From contig NW_026943823.1 of the NCBI RefSeq assembly GCF_035594765.1, positions 14,508,001 to 14,572,000 of the forward strand: DNA of 64,000 nucleotides, written 5' to 3'. A model generated the notes under the pieces. The model saw only the letters and a program-made list of their open reading frames with translations, had not been told where the DNA came from and did not search any database. Positions within the stretch are counted from its first letter, which is position 1. The number at the start of each line of letters is the position of its first letter. Below are positions 16,753 through 64,000 of the stretch, one piece after another. The translations under genes were made by a program, and so were the position numbers. This DNA comes from Anolis carolinensis (lineage: Eukaryota).

Positions 16753-17812
16753 TAATAAAATCTTTACTTATATTCCGCACAGTCTCCCCAAGGAGACTCA
16801 GGGCGAATTCCAACATACAATGGCAAATATTCAATGCCTCAATGAAACAACAAATACCAACATAAAATCAAGAACCCCCCCCCCCCCATAGGAAAACAAT
16901 ATTAAAACCTAACATCAAATTAAAGCCCAACCCCACCCTGCCACATTTGTGACCTCTCTCTCTCTCTTTGTTTCTGTCTAGAGGAGCCCCTTTGTGATGG
17001 ACCCACCAAGACACCCCTCCCTTGGCTCCCTGGCCATTTGTGCCGTCTAATTCTCATTTGGGACAAGGGCAATCCTGGGAGGAAAGGCAGAAGAGGGCCT
17101 CCTCCTCCTTGCAGTTCTCAGAGGTCCCTTAGCTCTTTCTGGTCCTAGCATGGCCACAGGGGCCCAGAATCTCCACCTGCCCCTCAGCCACCTCCCTGTG
17201 CCCCCACCATCCTGGCAGGACCCATAGCAACTCAGGCCCACTCAATGGGGGTCAGTCCCCAGGTCCCTGATCTGTCCGAGTCTGTAAAGGGTTTAATTGT
17301 GATCTGGACTAAGCCTCGGCCCCTGAGCCCGATTTGTGAGTGGATTTGGCAAAGCTGCAGTGAAAAATTAGAAAGCACGCCTCAGCCTCCCTCTGGCCCT
17401 GTTCTGAGGAGGTGCCTGACCGCCCAGCCTCCCTACTCTCCAACGGGCCCTGCGTGGCCGCCTGAGGTAAGCCCCCCTCCCACCATGGGGTCAGTCGCCA
17501 TGGGGTGCCCCTCTGGGATGGGGAGGGAGGGTGGGGCACCCTCTGGCCAGGCTGTGGGGAGAGCCAGACCCCCAGAAATAGCTCTGCTCCTTTCCCTCCA
17601 TCCTCCTCTTTCCCCCAAGAGGAGGACCAAGGCCCAAGGCAGCAAAGGCCTCTGTGTCAAGCAGTGGTTTTCAACCTGTGGATCCCCAGATGTTTCAGCC
17701 TCCAGCTCCCAGAAATCCTAACAGTTGGTAAATTGGCTGAGGTTTCTGGGAATTGTAGGCAAAACACCTGGGAATCCAGAGGGTGAGAACCAGTGGTGTA
17801 AAGGATGAGGGG

Positions 17813-47700: not shown

Positions 47701-50700
47701 AAGTGACCTGCAGTAAGAAATGGGCCTACAGAGTGGAGTCCATGACATGAGAATGTGCAGAACATATACAAAGCCCTGGAGTGTTTACTGGGATCTGCCC
47801 AATGTTAATCAGAATTTTGAAAAGGATGTCTTTTTAATTCCAATTTTTGGAACATGGCATTAATAACCATTTGGAGATAATAACCTTTTGGAGAAGCATG
47901 ACCTTTCAGAGAAGAGCCAAAAACCTGTTTGAGTAGTATCTTCTCAAACAGTATACAACCAAATGTAATATGCAAGGCAATGTCTTCAGTGTTAGACAAA
48001 CCTATTGTCTCTGATCTGTTAAGAAAAGAGACTATGTCAGTGCATAAAAACAGCAGAGTTTCAGAAGTGTTTTTCAGTGCCCCAAAATATATCTACTCTC
48101 CCATAACCTAGACTTGACGTCCCCTAGATCACCCCCCCACCCACAATGCTGGCCGGGTGTTCTGGCCTTTACACCTGCCCCTCATTACTTTGAGGGCTCT
48201 ATTTATGACCACTTGGTAATTGGCCATGCCCCACCTCCTTTTCAGGGGGCCAGTCGAACATTGGGCACCTAGTTTCTGCTGTAGAGCCCCCAAGAGAAGT
48301 AGGTCTGTGTATGGGAATTCCTACGATCTCTGGGAGGGGGAGATATGACGGTAGGCTCAGGCCGAATATTAGAGGGAGGCTGAGTCGACGGAAGACTCGG
48401 CCCCCCTCTGACCTGCGGCCTATCCCCAAGTGCACCTATGACAGGCGACCAGTTTCCTCCCCTCCTACCCTGGTGTTGGTGAATGCTAGGTCCATAAGGA
48501 ATAAAACTGCTACTATCAGAGATTTTCTTACTGACCAGGGAGCTGACCTAGTGTGTATCACTGAAACCTGGATCCAAGAGGGGGACGAGATCCTACTCCA
48601 GGAAATAACATCTCCAGGTTATGTAATCACCCGCCAGATGCGGAGTGGGAGGCGGGGGGGTGGGGTGGCTATGCTCTCCCGAGAAAGCTTTTCTCTTAGG
48701 GCAGTTCCTGTTGTGGACATCTCTGGCACTGAATGTGTTGGTCTGGTGTGGGATTCCCCTGAGAGCATGGCCTTTCTGCTGGTGTACCGTGCGCCTAGTG
48801 CACCAGCAGACAGCCTATCCCAGCTGCTCGAGACTGTGTCGGAGTGGTCCTTGAGGTTCCCCAGACTTGTTGTCCTGGGGGACTTCAATGTCCACGCTGA
48901 TACGGACTCTTGCTCAGCAGCGGCTATGGACCTAGTGTCTACCATGGAGACACTAGGACTCTTGCTCTGCAGTACTGGGCCCACGCATCAAGCAGGACAT
49001 ACGCTAGACTTGATCTTCAGCGCAGGAATTCAAGTGACCCAAGCCTCTATTTTAGAGGTTCCATGGTCAGATCACTGTGCCCTGAGAGTCAGGCTGGAGC
49101 ATGCCTACCCACCTGGCAAGGGCGCCGAGCCGATTTGGGCTCGCCCAAGAAGACTTATGGAACCTAGTAGGTTCCAGAATGCTCTGAAGGACCTGGAGCC
49201 TGTCAGCGACTCAATCGATGTGCAGGTGGACATGTGGAACATCAGGCTGTCCAATGCACTCGACGAGATCGCCCCTAGACGCCCTCTCCAACCCCGCCGA
49301 AATCGGTCTCCTTGGTTCACCGAGGAACTTCGATCGATGAAGCGGGAAAAGAGACGGCTAGAGGGCGTGTGGCGAGAACTTCATGACAGAGCTTCGAGAT
49401 CAGCTTACAGGGCATTTATTGGAGTCCTATGAGCATGCTACCATCGAAGCAAAGAGAGTATACTATGCCTCTTTGATAGAGTCCGCCAGCTCACGCCCGG
49501 CAAAATTGTTCAAAATAATTAGATCTCTAACGACGGTTCCTACCAACCCAAAAAGTGATGATCAGACCCCTTCAGCCGAGGCTTTTCAAAGCTATTTTGC
49601 TGACAAGATCTCACTACTACGCCGGGACCTCCCCGCCACAACTGATACAATGAGAGAACTTGAGACTCCGTGGCCACTTGCTGGGCCCACCCTCGACCAG
49701 TTCATCCCACTGGACGCAGAGGGTCTCGATAGGCTCATAGCTGCAGCTAGACCGACCACTTGCTCCCTTGACCCGTGTCCCTCTTGGTTAGTAAAATCCT
49801 GCTTGGAGGGATTACGTGACCCGCTGCTGAAGATAATAAACAGCTCCCTTGAGCAAGGAGTCTTTCCAGAGGGATTAAAAGAGGCAGTGGTCTCTCCTCT
49901 GCTGAAAAAACCAGATTTAGATCGTTTGGTTCCCTCCAGCTACCGCCCAGTTTCGAATCTTTCATTTCTGGGCAAGGTGATTGAGAGGGCAGTAGCGGTG
50001 CAGCTGCAGCAGTTCCTAGACGACACAGCCGGACTGGATCCTTTCCAGTCTGGCTTCCGTGCGGGGCATGGGACAGAGACTGTATTGGTTTCCATCACAG
50101 ATCATCTCCGATGCCAGCTTGACCGGGGCGGGTCGGTGTTGCTTGTGTTATTGGATCTCACAGCAGCATTTGACACAGTCGATCACAATCTTCTGACCCA
50201 CCGCCTTGCCGTTGCTGGAGTTAGGGGGACAGCTTTAAATTGGCTGGCCTCCTTTCTTCACAACCGTGGACAGCGAGTGGAGAGGGGGGGCCTGGTCTCT
50301 GAGAGGTCCCCTCTACATTGTGGGGTTCCTCAGGGGGCCATTCTCTCCCCTCTGTTGTTTAACATCTATATGCAACCACTTGCTCAGCTGGTCCGAGATT
50401 TCGGGCTCGAGTGTTATCAATATGCTGACGACACTCAGCTTGTGTTAAAGATGGAAGGCCAACCGGAGTCTGTACCCGACAGTTTTCACCAGTGCCTCGA
50501 GGCCATTATTGGATGGTTGCGTTCCAGTAGTTTGAGGGTGAATCCAGCAAAGACGGAGCTCCTATGGCTGGGCCGACCGGGCAGTGGGGATATCCAGTTA
50601 CCAACCCTGGATGGTGAAGTGCTACGCCCGTCTTCACTAGTAAAGAGTCTGGGAGTCCTCTTGGACCCTTCACTGACGATGCAGGCCCAGGTCTCTGCCG

Positions 50701-53700
50701 TTACCAAAACTGCCTTTTTTCATCTTCGGCAGGCTAGACGGCTAGCCCCCTATCTATCTAGGGACAACCTGGCTACAGTGATCCAGGCTACAGTCATCTC
50801 GAGACTGGATTACTGTAATGCCCTTTACATTGGCCTTCCTGTGTCGGTGATCCGGAAGCTCAAAATGGTGCAAAATGCAGCTGCCCGGCTCCTTGCGGGA
50901 GTCCCCATAAGATGCCACATAACACCAATCTTACGGCAGCTGCACTGGTTACCAATTGAGCACCGGATCACTTTCAAAGTGATGGTGCTTACCTTCAAGG
51001 CCTTACATGGTCCAGGGCCGATGTACCTGAGGGACCGCCTCACCCCTTACAAACCCCAGAGATCCCTCCGTTCTGAGGACCAAGACCTGCTGGAAGTCCC
51101 CAGTTTTAAGACCTTGCGTCTAACTGCAACTAGACGCAGAGCCTTTTCAGTAGTGGCGCCATCTCTGTGGAACACCTTGCCACCTGAAGTTCGTGCCTTG
51201 CGGGACTTGTTGGCCTTCCGCAGGGCATGTAAGACACACCTGTTTCGGCAGGCTTTTGAGTTCTGTTGCTGATGTTTTAAAAGGTGCTTTTAGGATGTTT
51301 TAAAGATTTTTTTTTAAATGATGTTTTTAAAATGTTTTTTAAATTGTTGATTTTAGCCGGTTCTTGTAAGCCGCTCCGAGCCCTAGGGGAGTGGCGGCAT
51401 ATAAGTTTGAAAAATAAATAAATAAATAAAAATAAATAAATAAAAACAACTAGTTTTGTATCATGCACTCAAGAGTAAACCGTCCTGAGTCCCCTTGAGG
51501 AGATAGGGTGGTCTATAAATAAAGTTATTATTATTGTTATTGTTATTATTATTAAGAGACAAAAATGAAGTAAGCTTTGGTAAAATAACACACTTGGTTT
51601 ACTCACAACTTCGTGTGTTCAGCATAACAAGTACATAGCTTATCAGTCCAGTTTCAGATATGTTTGAGACATCTTTCTTACAAACATCAAGTGTTTGCTC
51701 TTAGCAGTTCAGGTTCAGTCTATTTGGGTGACCGCATCCCCTTGTGCGAACCTGGCTGGGCCCTGAGATCTTCAGGAGAGCCCTTCTCTCGGTCCCACCT
51801 CCATCTCAAATACAGTTGGTGGGAACAAGAGAGCGGGCCTTCTCAGTGGCTGCCCCTCGACTCTGAAACTCCCTGCCCAGGGAAGTGGTTTCATGAATCT
51901 ATGATTCTATGGCAGCAGGTTAAAACCTTTTTATTCAAACAGGCATATAAAGATGAAGGTGTTTACGATCTAGTCAGAGGATGCAATGGTTTTTCACGTT
52001 GAATATGTTTTGATGGTTTTTAACTGAAATTTGCAATGCTGTTTCTGTTTAATTCTGTTTTAATGTTTGTATATTTGTATATTTTAAATTGGATAATGAT
52101 GCTTTTATGTCAAGCCACTTTGAGTTCCCTTTGGGGATAAAAAGCAAGGTATAAATAAATATAATAATAACAAGAAGAAGAAGAGGAAGAAATGAAATAG
52201 AAATAGAATGAAATAGAATAAGCAGGGCTCAGTTCACATTTTCCCATTCACACGACAACTAGAGAGGTATTCAGAATGCAAATGACCATGAGGTCTTAAA
52301 ACAAAAGAAGATGCATCCTGAAGAATTCCATTCTACATCATCCATTAGTGTGGGAGGAGAAAAGACAAAGAGTGAGAGAAAACAGAACAACAAAAGGTCT
52401 TTCGGGAATGAGGGGGAAAGAAGGGTTTCCCTCGGCCTTGCTTAATTCTGTCTGCTTCTCATTGAGGACTATAGCAGTGTGGGGTTGAACTGCAACACAC
52501 AGGGCACCATTGTTGCCACACACGTCCCATGTTCCAGCCATGTCCCGAGGGCTCCCATCCTTGTTTCAGAGGCTGCTTGGGTCTGTGATTGTGCTGTGAG
52601 GGTGTCACGACCCAGGCTGCAGAGCACCAATAACCATACACCGAGGCCAGATTCTATCTAATATCTTTATTGAAGGAATATATAAAGTTAATAAAAGCAA
52701 GTGTATGAAATAGTCCAGAAATAGACCTTTCAGGAAAGGTCAAAATTAGTCCAAAGAAACAATGTCCAATATGAAATATTAAGGTCCAAAGTTGTAATCC
52801 AATAACCGAAACACTCACTTTGCCAGGCAAAGTGAGGGGAGATGACAAGGTCCTTTAGTCCAATGGAACTTGAGCGAGGCTAGGGAGTAACTTGAAACAG
52901 GGCTTGATACAAGGCAACAAGGACGAGGAGCAAGAACAAGATCCGTGGAATACTTGGCAAAATCCGGAAAACAAGGCAAGGCAGAGTCCTGGAAAACAAG
53001 GCTGAGTCCTAGGAAGCAAGGCAAGGTCCGCGGAGGTAAACAAGGCTGGAACGGGAACGTAGGCTTGGAAACAGGAACGAAGGCTTAGAAGCGGAGTAGC
53101 GCTGTCCACACACAACCTACTCCAGTTGCTGACGAATTGACTCCGCAAGATCCCTTTGTGGGCAAAGCACCTAAATAGGATCTAGTTTTCCCACCAAAGA
53201 GCAGTTCCCTGGAGAACCAGAAACGAAAGCTATTCTCTGAGTCCAGATGCATGACTCCTTAAAGTTTCCCATGGAAAGCAGGCTTAATCAGCTGAATGCT
53301 TAGCAGCTATCCTAGCACTCCTGCGGGACGCCTGTTGAACTCCCCTCTGTTGTTTACAAAAAGCATGGCGAGAAAACGTAGGAGATTGTGGCTCGGGGCT
53401 TGTTTGACAGACTTCTGGAAGACAAATCTCTTGCAGGTGCAAGGTTTCCAAATCTGGCTGGGAAAGTTCCAATTCTGGCTGGAACGGTGAAAAACCCAAG
53501 TTTTCCTCTTCATCTGGCACCATAGTGCCAGGAATGGGACTACATTGCCCATGGGTCATCACACTATCCCCCCCCTCAAGCCCCCTCTCAAAAATGAGCT
53601 CTCTCCCCGAAGTGCGGGACCGCGGCTTAGCAGGGTAGTTCTGATGGAAGCGGCGGGCTAAATCAGGGGCATGGACTGCGGAAGCGTCTACCCAAGAGCG

Positions 53701-56700
53701 TTCTTCGGGGCCAAAACCCGCCCAGTCAATGAGATATTGCAGGCGGCGGCGGTGAAAGCGAGAATCCAAAATGTCCTGAACCTCGAATTCTTCCTCCCCA
53801 TCCACTAAAACAGGAGTGGGGGCCGGCCGGTCTGCATCAGGGCGCACACCATCCGCCGGAAGGAGCAGGGAGCGATGAAACACTGGATGAATGCGCATCG
53901 AGCGCGGCAGTTGGAGTTTGAAAGTCACGGGGTTAAGTTGCGCCACCACTGGATAGGGGCCAATGAAACGGGCATCTAACTTCCGGCAAGGGCGGTGGGA
54001 GGGCAAAAAGCGAGTGGACAGAAGAACCCGATCTCCTACCTTGATTTCGGGGCCCGACTGGCGATGTTTGTCCGCGTGGCGTTTATAGTCCTCCTTGGCT
54101 TGGTCTAATTGCTGGAGCAAAAGTTGTTGCACCGCTGTGAGTTCTTGCAGCCAGTCCTCTGCTGCGGGAACCTCTGAGGTTTCAATAACAGGAGGGAAGA
54201 AACGTGGATGGTAGCCGTAGTTTGCAAAGAACGGGGTTTCTTTAGTAGAAGCCTGGACACCATTGTTATAGGCAAACTCTGACAGCGGTAACAGGGAAGC
54301 CCAATTGTCCTGTTGATAGTTTACATAGCAGCGAAGATATTGTTCCAGAGTGGCATTGGTGCGCTCTGTCTGCCCATCCGTTTGTGGATGGTGAGCCGAA
54401 GATAAACGAGAGTCTATGCCCAATAGTTTTTGTAGTGCTCTCCAGAAACGAGAGGTGAATTGGGACCCACGGTCTGTGACCAAACTCTTGGGCAATCCAT
54501 GCAATCTGAAAACGTGCTGAAGGAATAAATCTGCAGTCTCTTTGGCCGTGGGAAGGCCATCGCAGGGAATGAAATGGGCTAACTTGGTAAAAAGGTCCAC
54601 CACCACTAGGATCGTGGTGAATCCGCAGGAAGGTGGTAGATCAGTGATAAAATCCGCAGAGATTATTTCCCATGGGCGAGATGGAGTAGGAAGGGGATGC
54701 AGAAGCCCCGAGGGCTTCTCCCGTCTTGTCTTGGAGCGCTGACATATTGGGCAGGTATTGACATATTTTTCCACATCCTTGCGGATCTTAGGCCACCAGA
54801 AATCTCTTAGGATCAAATGCATGGTTTTAAATAGTCCGAAATGCCCTGCTGGCTTACAGTCATGACACAGACGAAGTGCCTTTTCTCTGCCCGGTCCTGG
54901 GGGAATGTAGACATGATTTCTATAGCAAAGTAACCCATCCTTAAGCGAGAAGGGAAAATGTAGTCCTTGGCGAAGTTGATCCTGAGCCCAGGCATCTGTT
55001 TGTTGACTGGCCCTGATTTCCTGAGCACAAAGGGGCCCTGGAGTTGAGGGAGTAGATTCAATTGGGGTGGATTTAGTGTTTCCCACTGTGAGCGTGGCAA
55101 AGTTCTCGGGCTGCAGCAATTGGGACTCAAAGGTCTCCTTGCGCCCTGCAGCATATTCCGGTTTTCGTGACAAAGCATCTGCCTGTTTGGTCTGGGCTGG
55201 GGTTACATAATGGATTTGGAAGTCAAAACGCTCAAAGAATAAAGCCCAGCGTTGTTGTCTCTGATTTAGTTTGCGAGCAGTTCTTAGATGTTCTAGATTC
55301 CGATGATCAGTGTGGACCTCAATGGGAAATTTGGCCCCTTCTAACCAATGTCTCCAAGTTTCAAAGGCTGCCTTTATGGCCAAAAGTTCCTTTTCCCAAA
55401 TAGTGTAGTTTCTCTCTGGGGCAGTCAGTTGACGAGAGTAAAAGGCACAAGGGTGAAGATGTTCTCCCACTGGTTGCAAGAGTACCGCTCCAATTGCCAC
55501 ATCGGAGGCGTCCGCCTGTACGACAAAAGGGGTTTCAGGATCTGGGTGCTGAAGGATTGGCTGTGACGTGAATAATTTCTTTAGTTGTTGGAATCCTTTC
55601 TCAGCTTGCTCTGTCCAGCGGAAAGGCTGTTTCCCTCGGATGCAGCTGGTGATTGGATCAGACCAGCGAGCAAAGTCTGGAATGAACTTGCGGTAGTAGT
55701 TCGCGAACCCCAAGAAGCGTTGCACCTCTTTCTTGTTGGTTGGCGCCCGCCATTCCAATACTGCTGTTACCTTGGCCGGGTCCATGGTGAGCCCTAGTGG
55801 CGAGACACGATAACCCAGGAAATCTACCTCTTGTAGATCAAAAGCGCATTTTTCCAGCTTGGCATAAAGTCCATGATCCCGCAATCGTTGTAACACCATT
55901 CTGACGTGGTTCTCATGTTCTGATTGCGATCTAGAAAACACCAAAAAATCGTCCAGGTAGATGATCAAGAACCGGTCTAGATAATCCTGAAAGATATCGT
56001 TGACAAAATGTTGAAACGTTGCGGGAGCTCCACATAAACCGAAATTCATGACCAGGGTTTCGAATAAACCGAATTTAGTCTGGAAGGCAGTCTTCCACTC
56101 GTCCCCTTCCCTGATGCGAACTAGATTATAAGCTCCTCGAAGATCCAGCTTGGTGTAAACCTTAGCCCCTCGAAGCCGGTCTAAGAGGTCCGAGATCAAA
56201 GGCAGGGGATACCGGTTTCGCTTAGTGATATTGTTCAATGCTCTATAGTCCACCACCAAGCGTAGGTCCCCTGACTTCTTTTTCACGAACATCACTGGGG
56301 AAGTGGCTGGGGATTGAGAGGGTCTAATAAACCCCTTGCGGAGGTTTGTCTCTAAGAACTCCCTGAGAGCTTCTTGCTCTGGTTCAGTCAGGGAGTAGAG
56401 GTGTCCTCGCGGGATCGGGGCCCCCTCCACCAAGTCAATGGCACAGTCATAAGGTCTATGTGGGGGTAGTCTCTCGGCTTCTTTTTCATTGAATACATCC
56501 CAATATTCTGAGTACTTCTTGGGCAAGGTGATAATGGGTTCAGCGTCTGTGGCATGGCAGACCTTGGCTACTAGGCAATGGTTTTGGCAATATTTTGAAG
56601 CAAACTGCAGTTCTCTGTTGGACCAGGAGATGCTTGGGTCGTGGAGTGTCAGCCATGGAATTCCCAAAATCACAGGGAAATGGGGAACCTCGGTAACAAA

Positions 56701-59700
56701 GAAGGAAATCTCTTCCATGTGTTCCCTTATCCACATTCTGGTGGGTTCCGACCACTGGCTTACTGGACCTGTCTTGAGGGGGCGGCCGTCGATGGCTTGC
56801 ACCACCCGGGCGTTCTTGAAGTCATGATATTGTAATCCCAGAGAGTCGGCATACTCTCTATCAATGAAATTGTTTGTGGCTCCTGAGTCTATCATGGCAT
56901 GGACCATGACGGGTCCTTTTTTCACTGACCACAAGGTGACCACTAGGAGAAATAGGACCCCGGTTGGCGGCTCTTGAGTGGGGTTTTTGACCGGGCTGGC
57001 GAGCCTCTCTACGCCCGGTCGCCGGCTTCCCCCGCCGGCTGCGCGCCAGCCGCCTCAGATGTCTTCGTCTCCGTGGAGGACGCCGTCGCCAGACGAGCGG
57101 CGGGCTTCCCTTTGGCTGGACACTCTCTGGCAAAGTGGCCCCCGTTTCCGCAGTACCAACAGAGATTTAGGCGTTGGCGGCGGGCCTTCTCGGCGGCATC
57201 TAGTCTGGGTCGCACGTTGCCCAACTGCATTGGCACCTCCTCGCTTCCTCGGGGGTATGGGGCTGGTGGCGGGGGTCTCCACACAGGACGCGGCTGGACG
57301 CCGGTGGGAGCGGGAGGTTTCGCTCCAGCCCTACCGCTCTGGCCTCGAATCCATTGCTTTCTGTTGGCAAGCATGACTTCAGCTCGTAAACATTGATCAA
57401 TGAGTGCTTCAAGAGAGTGTGGAGGATCCACCTTGGAGATTTCCTCCAGCATCTCGATGTTGAGACCCTCCCGAAATTGTCCTCTGAGGGCTACATCGTT
57501 CCAGCCGGTGTTATGGGCCAGCACTCGGAACTCGGCTATGTACTGGGACAAGGGTCTGTCTCCTTGGGAGAGGCGCCGGAGTTTGTGGCCGGCTGCCTCC
57601 AAATTATCCTCGATCCCCCAAGTCGCCTTAAGGTGGTCCAAGAAGTGTTGCGCTGATCTTAGATGTGGGGAGACTTGGTCGAACAGTGCCGTCGCCCAGT
57701 TGGCCGCTGGCCCGTCTAGGAGACTGTAAATCCACGCCACCTTGATGTCTTCTTGGGGAAACTCGGCAGCACGGGCCTCTAGATAAGCCTGGCATTGGCG
57801 ACGGAAAACATGAACCTTAGAAGCTTCTCCGGAGAACTTGGTTGGCAACGCCATGGCCGGGAGACGGATTCCGCGCTCCTTCAAACCCCTAATTTCTCCA
57901 TCCTGCGCATTGAGCTTGTCACGGATGCGGTCCACTTCGTCCTTGTCGATGGTGTAGCTGAGTGGCTGGCCACCCGGCACGGTTCCGGTAGACATTCTGG
58001 CCTAGGTTAATTGGTGCTTAGGGTGGCGGAGTCAAACTGTCACGACCCAGGCTGCAGAGCACCAATAACCATACACCGAGGCCAGATTCTATCTAATATC
58101 TTTATTGAAGGAATATATAAAGTTAATAAAAGCAAGTGTATGAAATAGTCCAGAAATAGACCTTTCAGGAAAGGTCAAAATTAGTCCAAAGAAACAATGT
58201 CCAATATGAAATATTAAGGTCCAAAGTTGTAATCCAATAACCGAAACACTCACTTTGCCAGGCAAAGTGAGGGGAGATGACAAGGTCCTTTAGTCCAATG
58301 GAACTTGAGCGAGGCTAGGGAGTAACTTGAAACAGGGCTTGATACAAGGCAACAAGGACGAGGAGCAAGAACAAGATCCGTGGAATACTTGGCAAAATCC
58401 GGAAAACAAGGCAAGGCAGAGTCCTGGAAAACAAGGCTGAGTCCTAGGAAGCAAGGCAAGGTCCGCGGAGGTAAACAAGGCTGGAACGGGAACGTAGGCT
58501 TGGAAACAGGAACAAAGGCTTAGAAGCGGAGTAGCGCTGTCCACACACAACCTACTCCAGTTGCTGACGAATTGACTCCGCAAGATCCCTTTGTGGGCAA
58601 AGCACCTAAATAGGATCTAGTTTTCCCACCAAAGAGCAGTTCCCTGGAGAACCAGAAACGAAAGCTATTCTCTGAGTCCAGATGCATGACTCCTTAAAGT
58701 TTCCCATGGAAAGCAGGCTTAATCAGCTGAATGCTTAGCAGCTATCCTAGCACTCCTGCGGGACGCCTGTTGAACTCCCCTCTGTTGTTTACAAAAAGCA
58801 TGGCGAGAAAACGTAGGAGATTGTGGCTCGGGGCTTGTTTGACAGACTTCTGGAAGACAAATCTCTTGCAGGTGCAAGGTTTCCAAATCTGGCTGGGAAA
58901 GTTCCAATTCTGGCTGGAACGGTGAAAAACCCAAGTTTTCCTCTTCATCTGGCACCATAGTGCCAGGAATGGGACTACATTGCCCATGGGTCATCACAGA
59001 GGGGATTGTGGGCATCTGCCTTTTAGGGCAGAGGGGCTGTGTGTTTTGGAAGAGCATGGGAACTGGTCTCTTCCCTCCCACCCTCTCTCCTTCTCAGCTG
59101 CTGCTCAAGTGCAAGTGAAGCCTGAAAATAATAAAGGGATCTGGAGCACAGATGAGGTGCCAGAGGGGTCCCAATACGACGATCCCTGGGACCCCCGGGA
59201 GCAGCCTGAGTAAGTGCATCCAAGTAGGCAGACTTTTGATGTATGCATGTTTGTATGTGGGCCCCCATCAGGGGAGCTTGACTAGTAATTTTTTGTGCAG
59301 TTGTGAAAATTGCTAATACAATTATATTTATATGTCTTAGGGCTGTATTGTGACTGTAAAGAATCCTTGAGTTTAAGGAAGCAAGAAGCAGAGTTAATCT
59401 TAAAAGTTTCAAAAAGGTTTATTAAAACATAAGAACTACATTTCTTGATGGAAAAGGATTGGGTCTAAACTTTCTCTCTAACCCCACGACTTCTAAGTCC
59501 AAAAAAAGAGAGGAAAAATCTCTATAGACTACATTTTCCCATTTGCACACAACTAGAGGGAGACTCCGGCTGGATCTACACTATCCTATATCCCAGGAAC
59601 TGATCCCAAATTATCTGCTTTGAATTGGATTATATGACTCTACACTGCCAGATAATCTGGGATAAGCAGATACTCTGGGATCAGATACTGAGATTTAGGG

Positions 59701-62163: not shown

Positions 62164-64000
62164 TGTGCCGTCCGCCGGACAATAAAAAACTATAAAACTG
62201 AAACGTGCTGTCCTTTATCCGGGCGAACTGCAAATCCCTATAAGCTGTCCTATAGATATTGAACGACTGAGTCTGGATAACTTCAAAAAAGGATGTTTAT
62301 TCATACAAGGTTGTAAACCTGGCACAGATCTTAAAGTTGCAGAAAATGAAACAAATTTCTATAGGTTTTAGGTACAGAACTATCCCTGGTTCCAGAAAGC
62401 AAAGGTGATTATAAAACCACTATACCCTAATCACGCTGCCTATATTAGAAGGAGAAACTCTTTCCTTCCCTATCTTTACAGCAAAGATTAGTTCTAGAAG
62501 CGACAGAATAACCCTGCTCCTATAACTAGATTTCCTATTCCAGATCAATATAATTCAATACTTATCTAATTTGGATAGGCTTAGATTGGCCTGGTTTTGA
62601 GGATGATTTGTCCCAGTTAGCCTTGCACAGCTCCAGCACGTTGGAAGACTATAGCCAGAATGAAGCTCCAAAATGGAGACTAGACCCTGGTAAAAAGGGC
62701 GGTCCTAAGATGTTGCATTCTTTGACCAATCACTGCAAAGAAAACTGCAGCCAGCTCTTGCAGATTCCAAGCCATTTTTCCTAGGCTTTTGCAGCCAGAG
62801 GCTCAAACAAAATGTAAAGGAGGGAAAACAAACAAACGACCAATAGGTAAGGCAAACCATCGTCCTGGGGGACGGAACACTCCCCGCTAAATTCCCAGGA
62901 TATGGGAATTTACCAATCAAAAACATACAAACACCTTTGTATACACAACAATACAAACACTAGAACTTTAAACATCTCCAATAAGCAACACGAGGTCACT
63001 AATTGGTCTGTCCAAAATGGACACTTTGCCTCTGTTGCAAGTCTTTAATTGAACTTTCCTGACCTTACCGTCCGGGCAAGGAAAGGTCTTTAATACAATG
63101 CCCATGGGCCATGCATGGCGGGGCAAGTCTTTGTCCTTTAACAACACAACGTTGTTAACCTCAATGTTGTCCTGTGGGCTTTGCCAGATTCTTCTAGCTT
63201 GAAGCTGGCTTAAGTACTCGGCTTTCCACCTTTTCCAAAAGTGGTTGGCCAAGGACTGCACCTGTTTCCACAGGGCACGGTGAGTTCCGTCCGGAACTGG
63301 CAACATGACGTCCTTCCATCCTGGCACCTTTTGTGTCAAAATAAGTGCAGGAGTCAGTGGTTGTAAGTTCTCAGGGTCACTGGTAAGGGGAACCAGCGGC
63401 CGGTTGTTGATAATTGCGGTAACTTCCGCCATAAGTGTCACCAAAACATCATGCGTCAATGACCTATGACTCAAAAACATGGCATTAAGGATTTTGCGAC
63501 TAATACCAATCATCCTCTCCCAAACACCACCCATATGGGAGGCGTGAGGAACATTGAAAGTCCACATAATTTGTTCAGTATTCGTAAAGTTCTGAACCTT
63601 TGGGTCTCTCCCAAACCTAGACACACAATTGAGTTCTTTGGTCGCACCTACAAAATTGGTGCCACAGTCCGACCGAATTGACTTAATTGGCCCTCTGAGG
63701 GCTATGAACCTTTTTAATGCGTTTAAAAATGATGAAGTGTCCATCCCTTCTATGACTTCTATATGGACAGCTCGTATTACTAAACAAGTAAACAAAACTG
63801 CCCACCTCTTGTTATTTACAACACCACCCCTGGTTTTCCTAGTGACAACCTCCCAAGGACCAAACACATCGATTCCCACATGGGAAAAGGGTGGGTCTGT
63901 CAAAGTCCTATCCTGAGGTAGTTCTGCCATCAACTGACTTTGACAGTTTCGCCTAAGGCGCCTGCATTTAACACATTTGAAAATACAACTGTTGACCAAC
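62164..64000 (-). mobile_element. BEL/Pao LTR retrotransposon 3' part; 3' LTR 62164-62879
   Basis: LTR termini TGTGCCGTCC...GGACGGAACA (inverted repeat); purine tract at 62880-62890; integrase ORF upstream. Confidence 0.88.
62968..63999 (-). CDS. BEL/Pao integrase core plus C-terminal domain (5'-incomplete)
   Basis: CVKC, QLMAELP, GIDVFGP, FTCLVIRAVHIE, SDCGTNFVGA, PHASHMGGVWERMI, INNRPL, FWKRWKAEYL, DGKVRKV...RPISDL. Confidence 0.9.
   Translation of the reverse strand: MVNSCIFKCVKCRRLRRNCQSQLMAELPQDRTLTDPPFSHVGIDVFGPWEVVTRKTRGGVVNNKRWAVLFTCLVIRAVHIEVIEGMDTSSFLNALKRFIALRGPIKSIRSDCGTNFVGATKELNCVSRFGRDPKVQNFTNTEQIMWTFNVPHASHMGGVWERMIGISRKILNAMFLSHRSLTHDVLVTLMAEVTAIINNRPLVPLTSDPENLQPLTPALILTQKVPGWKDVMLPVPDGTHRALWKQVQSLANHFWKRWKAEYLSQLQARRIWQSPQDNIEVNNVVLLKDKDLPRHAWPMGIVLKTFPCPDGKVRKVQLKTCNRGKVSILDRPISDLVLLIGDV

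Follow-up and report, generated by a model that had tools for sequence, protein, structure and literature searches.

Does the integrase of a lizard retrotransposon end with its chromodomain, or does it carry a second chromatin-binding module encoded by the long terminal repeat (LTR)? The question is raised by a chromodomain-bearing Ty3/Gypsy element on the minus strand of a 64,000-nt stretch of Anolis carolinensis DNA (contig NW_026943823.1, positions 14,508,001 to 14,572,000), which is referred to as the window and whose numbering is used for all positions. To our knowledge, the choice of target chromatin and the retention on it are known for few LTR retrotransposons, and we are aware of hardly any studies of vertebrate chromoviruses. 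A first-pass annotation of the window, made from the letters alone, had proposed that the pol frame runs through the polypurine tract (PPT) into the LTR for about 93 codons and ends in a nucleosome-binding motif of the HMGN type.

The pol frame continues into the 3' LTR

Pol is open past the chromodomain, crosses the PPT and encodes 92 codons plus stop inside the 3' LTR, where it ends with RRSARIAAKHSAD. The motif RRSARIAAK was found exactly at the annotated position (Table 1), and the linker before it is acidic and proline-rich as described: the first 62 LTR codons contain 11 D/E, 10 P and zero K/R, the last 30 contain 7 K/R. A Pfam search with the 92-aa tail gave no family match. In shuffles of the tail, the pattern RRSxR[ILV] appeared about once in 10,000, and back-translated RRSxR[ILMF]AA was found at 16,842 sites of the genome vs 20 for the reversed control. 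The motif is not due to chance.

The chromodomain preceding the tail was recognized by Pfam (Chromo, PF00385, pol aa 1090-1138) with 31 bits against a cut-off of 25.1. Its cage positions F/W/F, which the annotation had pointed out, fall on aromatic residues in the alignment to an HP1 chromodomain, the best match in the PDB. The element itself is complete, and its two LTRs differ by 1 base; thus, this is a young and intact copy.

The annotation had further placed the tail in U3, which is supported indirectly. Bases 418-427 of the LTR are complementary over 10 nt to the bases directly behind the 5' LTR, a match reached in 14 of 2000 shuffles, and a TATTTA is located about 31 bases upstream of LTR base 418. 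The same pairing layout recurs in one further subfamily LTR. The element is therefore probably self-primed rather than tRNA-primed, as is known for the Tf1/sushi group (PMC6317226, which names Sushi-ichi and Amn-ichi as V-clade chromoviruses), and its transcript would start near LTR base 418. Since the stop of the tail frame is near LTR base 280, upstream of this putative start, the tail would be situated wholly in U3. Since the copy of the frame in the 5' LTR is upstream of the start as well, only the 3' LTR copy would be translated, forming the end of Pol.

Read-through is the norm of the family

Among the 30 nearest copies, the window copy included, 22 can be read as far as the motif. The remaining eight have a PPT G run with one base more (six copies) or one base less (two) and stop at the LTR edge; these variants are either real slippage or assembly errors. 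For a sample chosen irrespective of motif and frame, the genome was searched for PPT-LTR junctions (4,921 matches vs 15 in the control) and the first 70 matches on one contig (C1) were taken. Of these consecutive junctions, 64 are open from the chromodomain through the motif. Of the other six, three are broken inside the LTR, two are broken upstream and one is without an internal region. RRSxRI is present in each of the 67 LTR frames that get as far as the motif (as RRSARII in seven of them); R1, R2, S3 and R5 are fixed in 67/67 though the codons vary, and position 9 alternates between K and R. When 30 loci were picked by the Pfam Chromo domain alone, eight belonged to the clade of the window element, with the motif in frame in four, behind a frameshift in two and with one hit inside it in two. 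Read-through into the LTR is the family norm, and the annotation's expectations of an open frame in most members and of a conserved RRSxR were both borne out.

Selection on the LTR-encoded tail

The ratio of non-synonymous to synonymous substitutions (dN/dS) was calculated for all pairs of 20 subfamily representatives, which are non-independent pairs. The LTR frame gave 0.34, the two shifted frames of the same DNA 0.98 and 1.24, and the LTR sequence behind the stop 0.64, 0.86 and 0.74 in its three frames. In 10 disjoint pairs, the codons outside the motif had a dN/dS of 0.36 (Fisher p 1.6e-18) and those of the motif one of 0.09, the latter value being partly circular because the representatives had been extracted with the motif pattern; the 67/67 of the junction sample is a non-circular check on the conservation of the motif. 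The chromodomain region gave 0.15 (4 pairs). Thus, the tail encoded by the LTR is under protein-level purifying selection with a dN/dS of about 0.35, as the annotation had anticipated for U3.

If the open frame and the motif were by-products, either of a recent burst in which few mutations have accumulated or of a promoter element acting at the DNA level, the protein encoded would be of no consequence. The copies are indeed young, as the single-base difference between the LTRs indicates, and one frame behind the stop has a pseudo-dN/dS of 0.64 as well. Against this, the subfamilies have diverged to a pS of about 0.5, the codons of the motif vary freely, and both codon blocks for serine are in use across the families. 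Synonymous change in the motif is saturated (pS 0.77, pN 0.11), and therefore the constraint is on the protein and a DNA-level element is excluded for the motif. Length differences in the tail frame are multiples of three in 12/12 cases, partly by the selection of open copies, vs 19/219 downstream. By-products are largely refuted by the selection and junction results, and we consider them very improbable.

Likeness to acidic-patch binders and structure model

The core of the motif is the one by which several proteins grip the acidic patch of H2A-H2B. HMGN2 RRSAR (residues 22-26) and Dsup PPRRSSRLT have been resolved on the acidic patch by cryo-EM, with the last arginine of the motif as the anchor in the pocket formed by H2A E61, D90 and E92 (PMC12487698), and yeast Dot5 has been shown to bind the acidic patch, its nucleosome binding being through RRSARIAT and requiring R6, R7 and R10 (bioRxiv 10.64898/2026.01.14.699602). 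The HMGN likeness claimed by the annotation stands for the core, since the RRSAR segment modelled in HMGN2 is identical to that of the element. It does not extend to the full octamer RRSARLSA, of which 5/8 residues are equal; Dot5 is closer (7/8 residues of RRSARIAA, one position differing). The element does not encode an HMGN protein, having neither the full octamer nor HMG14/17 homology in Pfam, and its motif sits on a transposon enzyme instead. What it does share is an R-R-S-x-R core with fixed arginines, invariant in an alignment whose rows were chosen by the motif (A2).

The last 36 residues of the tail were modelled together with H2A and H2B of this genome, as the annotation had envisaged, and three controls were run. 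The tail was placed on the H2A-H2B acidic patch with a score of 0.78, the best control reaching 0.00; the mark used for calibration is reached by 51/78 solved and 2/108 mismatched pairs. The runs share at least 93% of their contacts, and the pLDDT of the partner is at least 59. The predicted contacts, R5 to H2A E61 and E92, S3 to E61 and E64, and R1 to H2B Q47, agree with those published for Dsup after conversion of the residue numbering (PMC12487698). The element resembles the HMGN motif, Dsup (RRSSRLTS) and Dot5 in having the motif in a low-complexity region and, in the model, in making the same contacts. This result raises the odds of acidic-patch binding but falls short of demonstrating it.

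The tail in related elements

A sister family in the same genome combines the same motif with a chromodomain and an acidic linker of unrelated sequence, and its PPT junction is in frame in 4/4 decayed copies. It was placed beside the clade of the window element with a support of 98/88 in a tree of SH3 plus chromodomain (41 rows, database matches), and its LTR has no significant DNA match to the window LTR. The motif has thus outlasted the linker.

A third, older LTR-like family (L100, L141-L170, L286-L291) has an unrelated acidic frame that ends in RRSLRIAAK in the better-preserved copies. Among its 36 loci no internal region or pol match was found, and it was not counted as support, as no tie to an integrase was found. 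Another chromodomain Gypsy family of this genome (17 loci: L053, L058-L060, L065-L066, L070-L080) mostly ends at the PPT/LTR edge, and two of the 17 extend 21 codons further.

Outside Anolis, proteins of Rhineura, Vipera, Crotalus, Naja, Podarcis and Salvator also carry an acidic tail behind chromodomain and PPT-like junction (P0225, P0258, P0273, P0338, P0242, P0228, P0132). Several tails from other squamates end in arginine-rich stretches which only approximate the motif, and two Salvator records have a near-match directly at the junction. In the fish-labelled relatives (P0005-P0120, P0136-P0182), the chromodomain is followed by an AT-hook-like RGRGRP stretch (109 of 208 proteins), of which the lizard family has just a degenerate form. 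A terminus of the type R-x2-3-SP[ED][YF] is conserved in 67/208; read from the protein alone, the fish proteins appear to cross the PPT and to end about 20 codons later.

The fish stretch bears on the possibility that the basic end of the lizard tail serves as a localisation signal for the nucleus or nucleolus, or that it is a DNA-binding helix of a general kind, taking the place of the AT-hook-like stretch; the likeness to HMGN would then be incidental. According to reference titles in PMC3605345, the integrase of Ty1 bears a nuclear localisation signal at its C-terminus. In the lizard family, basic residues ahead of the motif are conserved too (F7, R9 and R17 in A2). A plain basic signal, however, would tolerate exchanges of R and K and would not fix a serine, and in the lizard family position 9 does swap K and R, the four core residues being constant in 67/67. 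The spacing of the motif is also that of the three tested acidic-patch binders. Taken together, we regard a localisation or general DNA-binding function as unlikely.

Proposed function

We propose that the integrase carries its own arginine anchor, which adds nucleosome affinity beside the methyl-lysine reader, and give this reading a probability of roughly two in three. Pol reads through the PPT into the 3' LTR and would thereby place a selected 92-residue tail on the integrase. The chromodomain, with its cage residues present, would read methylated H3, the acidic linker would serve as a flexible spacer, and the terminal RRSAR would likely bind the H2A-H2B acidic patch, with R5 predicted in the pocket of H2A E61/D90/E92, S3 on E61/E64 and R1 on H2B Q47. 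The anchor would be a second chromatin grip for the integration complex next to the chromodomain; it may increase chromatin affinity or retention and would not choose a specific site.

Several observations weigh against this proposal. Among the sequences compared, the exact motif hardly occurs outside Anolis: it was found in just 7 of 208 related proteins (six Anolis-labelled ones and P0172), in 0 of 143 further representatives from a profile search of 1.84 billion representatives, whose matches were mostly chromodomain and multi-chromodomain proteins, and in none of the 17 loci of the other chromodomain Gypsy family. The ESM Atlas returned generic chromodomain clusters only. Conservation among squamate and fish relatives, which the annotation had raised, is thus not general, and chromoviruses as a group do not need the motif. 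P0172 was retained as weak evidence of spread beyond lizards, being a single sequence whose close relative P0352 (10-member) is without the motif. In the motif itself, position 7 is A or I, vs S in RRSARLSA. The junction sample is skewed to young copies and to one subfamily, 48 of the 68 scored frames being of equal length, the dN/dS pairs are not phylogenetically independent, and the value for the motif is partly circular. Solved complexes of HMGN, Dsup or LANA may have been memorised by the structure model and account for its score, the calibration of the method does not extend to short disordered peptides, and for HMGN2 itself AlphaFold 3 was unsuccessful (PMC12487698).

The motif might also bind the acidic patch with the tail acting apart from the integrase, either cut off by the protease or translated from an ATG in the LTR or from a spliced RNA. 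It would then act as a tether for particles, as MLV p12 and foamy virus Gag do, or change the local chromatin. An in-frame ATG is found at codon 2 of the LTR frame in almost all subfamilies, the LTR frame forms the end of an annotated Anolis gene model, P0127, and foamy virus Gag steers integration by an arginine anchor (PMC9040877). Yet the ATG lies within TGTGATG, the conserved end of the LTR, and in the sister families the start is different, the putative transcript start is downstream of the LTR frame, and continuity with the chromodomain is kept in 64/70 copies. A separately acting tail is therefore, in our estimate, even less probable than a localisation signal. Concerning the gene models, P0127 (XP_062826559.1) has the motif and P0315 a near-match; both possibly are exonised solo LTRs or prediction artefacts.

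Going beyond this element, we suggest tentatively, and at somewhat less than even odds, that integrases of LTR retrotransposons can bear an HMGN-type anchor, that U3 of the 3' LTR is an interchangeable cassette for a second chromatin-binding module, and that anchor and chromodomain together form a bivalent nucleosome reader. The versions of the cassette would be the RRSxR anchor in anoles, a different conserved end in fish and the CR motif in plants. If so, the bivalent reader would have helped the group in this lizard to its copy numbers, about 5,000 LTR copies that are internal-linked and about 17,000 that bear the motif, and the LTR copies would also spread ready-made nucleosome-binding exons across the genome.

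Comparison with known systems

Neither read-through into an LTR nor the tethering of a retroelement to the acidic patch (foamy virus Gag) is new. In plant CRM elements of group A, pol reads through into the 3' LTR, where the CR targeting motif is encoded, and in Bingo elements pol reads through as well (PMC3059260, PMC3605345); the partner of the CR motif was still to be identified as of 2011 (PMC3059260). In CRM group A the CR motif replaces the chromodomain, whereas the lizard element keeps a full group I chromodomain and has a second, LTR-encoded motif. It shares the read-through with group A but not the other features, namely a CR motif in place of the chromodomain, a tRNA-Met primer and a plant host.

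By domain order, chromodomain type and probable priming, the element is a Tf1/sushi-type chromovirus. Protease, reverse transcriptase (RT), RNase H and integrase follow in the Ty3/Gypsy order within an LTR pair, with PPT and target duplication; the integrase ends in a chromodomain of group I, with three aromatic residues in the cage; and the primer site apparently pairs with the LTR rather than with a tRNA. The closest named proteins are Gypsy polyproteins of Anolis carolinensis and Gypsy/Tf2-like polyproteins of fish. The difference from the relatives is at the end: the lizard tail has 76-99 LTR codons, is under selection and ends in RRSxR[IL], the fish one appears to have about 20 LTR codons and ends in R-x2-3-SP[ED][YF].

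Prototype foamy virus Gag, KSHV LANA and HCMV IE1 likewise tether a mobile genome to nucleosomes by a short arginine anchor, and loss of chromatin binding by the chromatin-binding sequence (CBS) of foamy virus Gag redistributes the integration sites (PMC9040877). Those anchors are on Gag or herpesvirus proteins and have other motifs; the candidate anchor of the lizard element is at the end of Pol, encoded by U3 and in tandem with a chromodomain. No report of an HMGN-type motif or arginine anchor in a retrotransposon integrase was found in the full-text literature searched, which included few subscription journals. The available text of PMC5053271 and PMC12159745 contained no such integrase motif, and that of PMC3601003 did not mention an LTR reading frame.

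Under the proposal, the integrase would have an arginine anchor of its own, and mobile elements would join host proteins as carriers of the HMGN motif. The motif is short, selected and directly testable, and it matches three proven acidic-patch binders. It also hints at what to seek in other integrase ends encoded by LTRs, e.g. the plant CR motif. In addition, the element clearly exemplifies vertebrate LTR DNA that serves as promoter and protein code at once.

Anatomy of the element

The features are compiled in Table 1. The gag and pol frames overlap by about 45 bases (57009-57054, minus strand) in different frames, which implies a ribosomal frameshift. Directly behind the stop of the tail (53283-53260, minus strand), a near-palindrome, TTTCCATGGGAAA / TTCCCTTGGGAA, is kept across the subfamilies and is perhaps a promoter element.

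Table 1. Features of the LTR retrotransposon in the window.
Feature	Position	Strand	Remarks
5' LTR, TG...CA	58038..58998	-	961 bp; holds second copy of tail frame
Putative self-primer / transcript start (LTR base 418)	58572..58581	-	complementary to primer-binding site
Primer-binding site	58026..58035	-	complementary to LTR base 418-427; without TGG start, hence non-tRNA type
gag (Retrotrans_gag, zinc knuckle)	57009..57995	-	328 aa; overlaps start of pol frame
pol frame, open 1256 aa	53284..57054	-	protease, RT, RNase H, integrase (H2C2, rve, SH3), chromodomain, LTR-encoded tail
Chromodomain, group I, three aromatic cage positions F/W/F	53641..53787	-	Pfam PF00385 and PDB match
PPT, read in frame	53564..53577	-	G run length varies among copies
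3' LTR	52603..53563	-	961 bp; AATAAA at LTR base 893
LTR(U3)-encoded tail	53284..53562	-	92 codons; acidic/Pro-rich linker, then basic end
RRSARIAAK, candidate arginine anchor for H2A-H2B acidic patch	53299..53325	-	
Target-site duplication CCCTC	52598..52602	-	other copy 58999-59003

Other features of the window

A LINE-like pair of open frames for an endonuclease and a reverse transcriptase is located at 48209-51272 (plus strand). An integrase-like frame at 62968-63999 (minus strand), which resembles BEL/Pao, runs off the end of the window. From position 1 to about 3700, the window contains an array of units of about 30 bp, in which at least 115 copies of 300 nt overlap in register.

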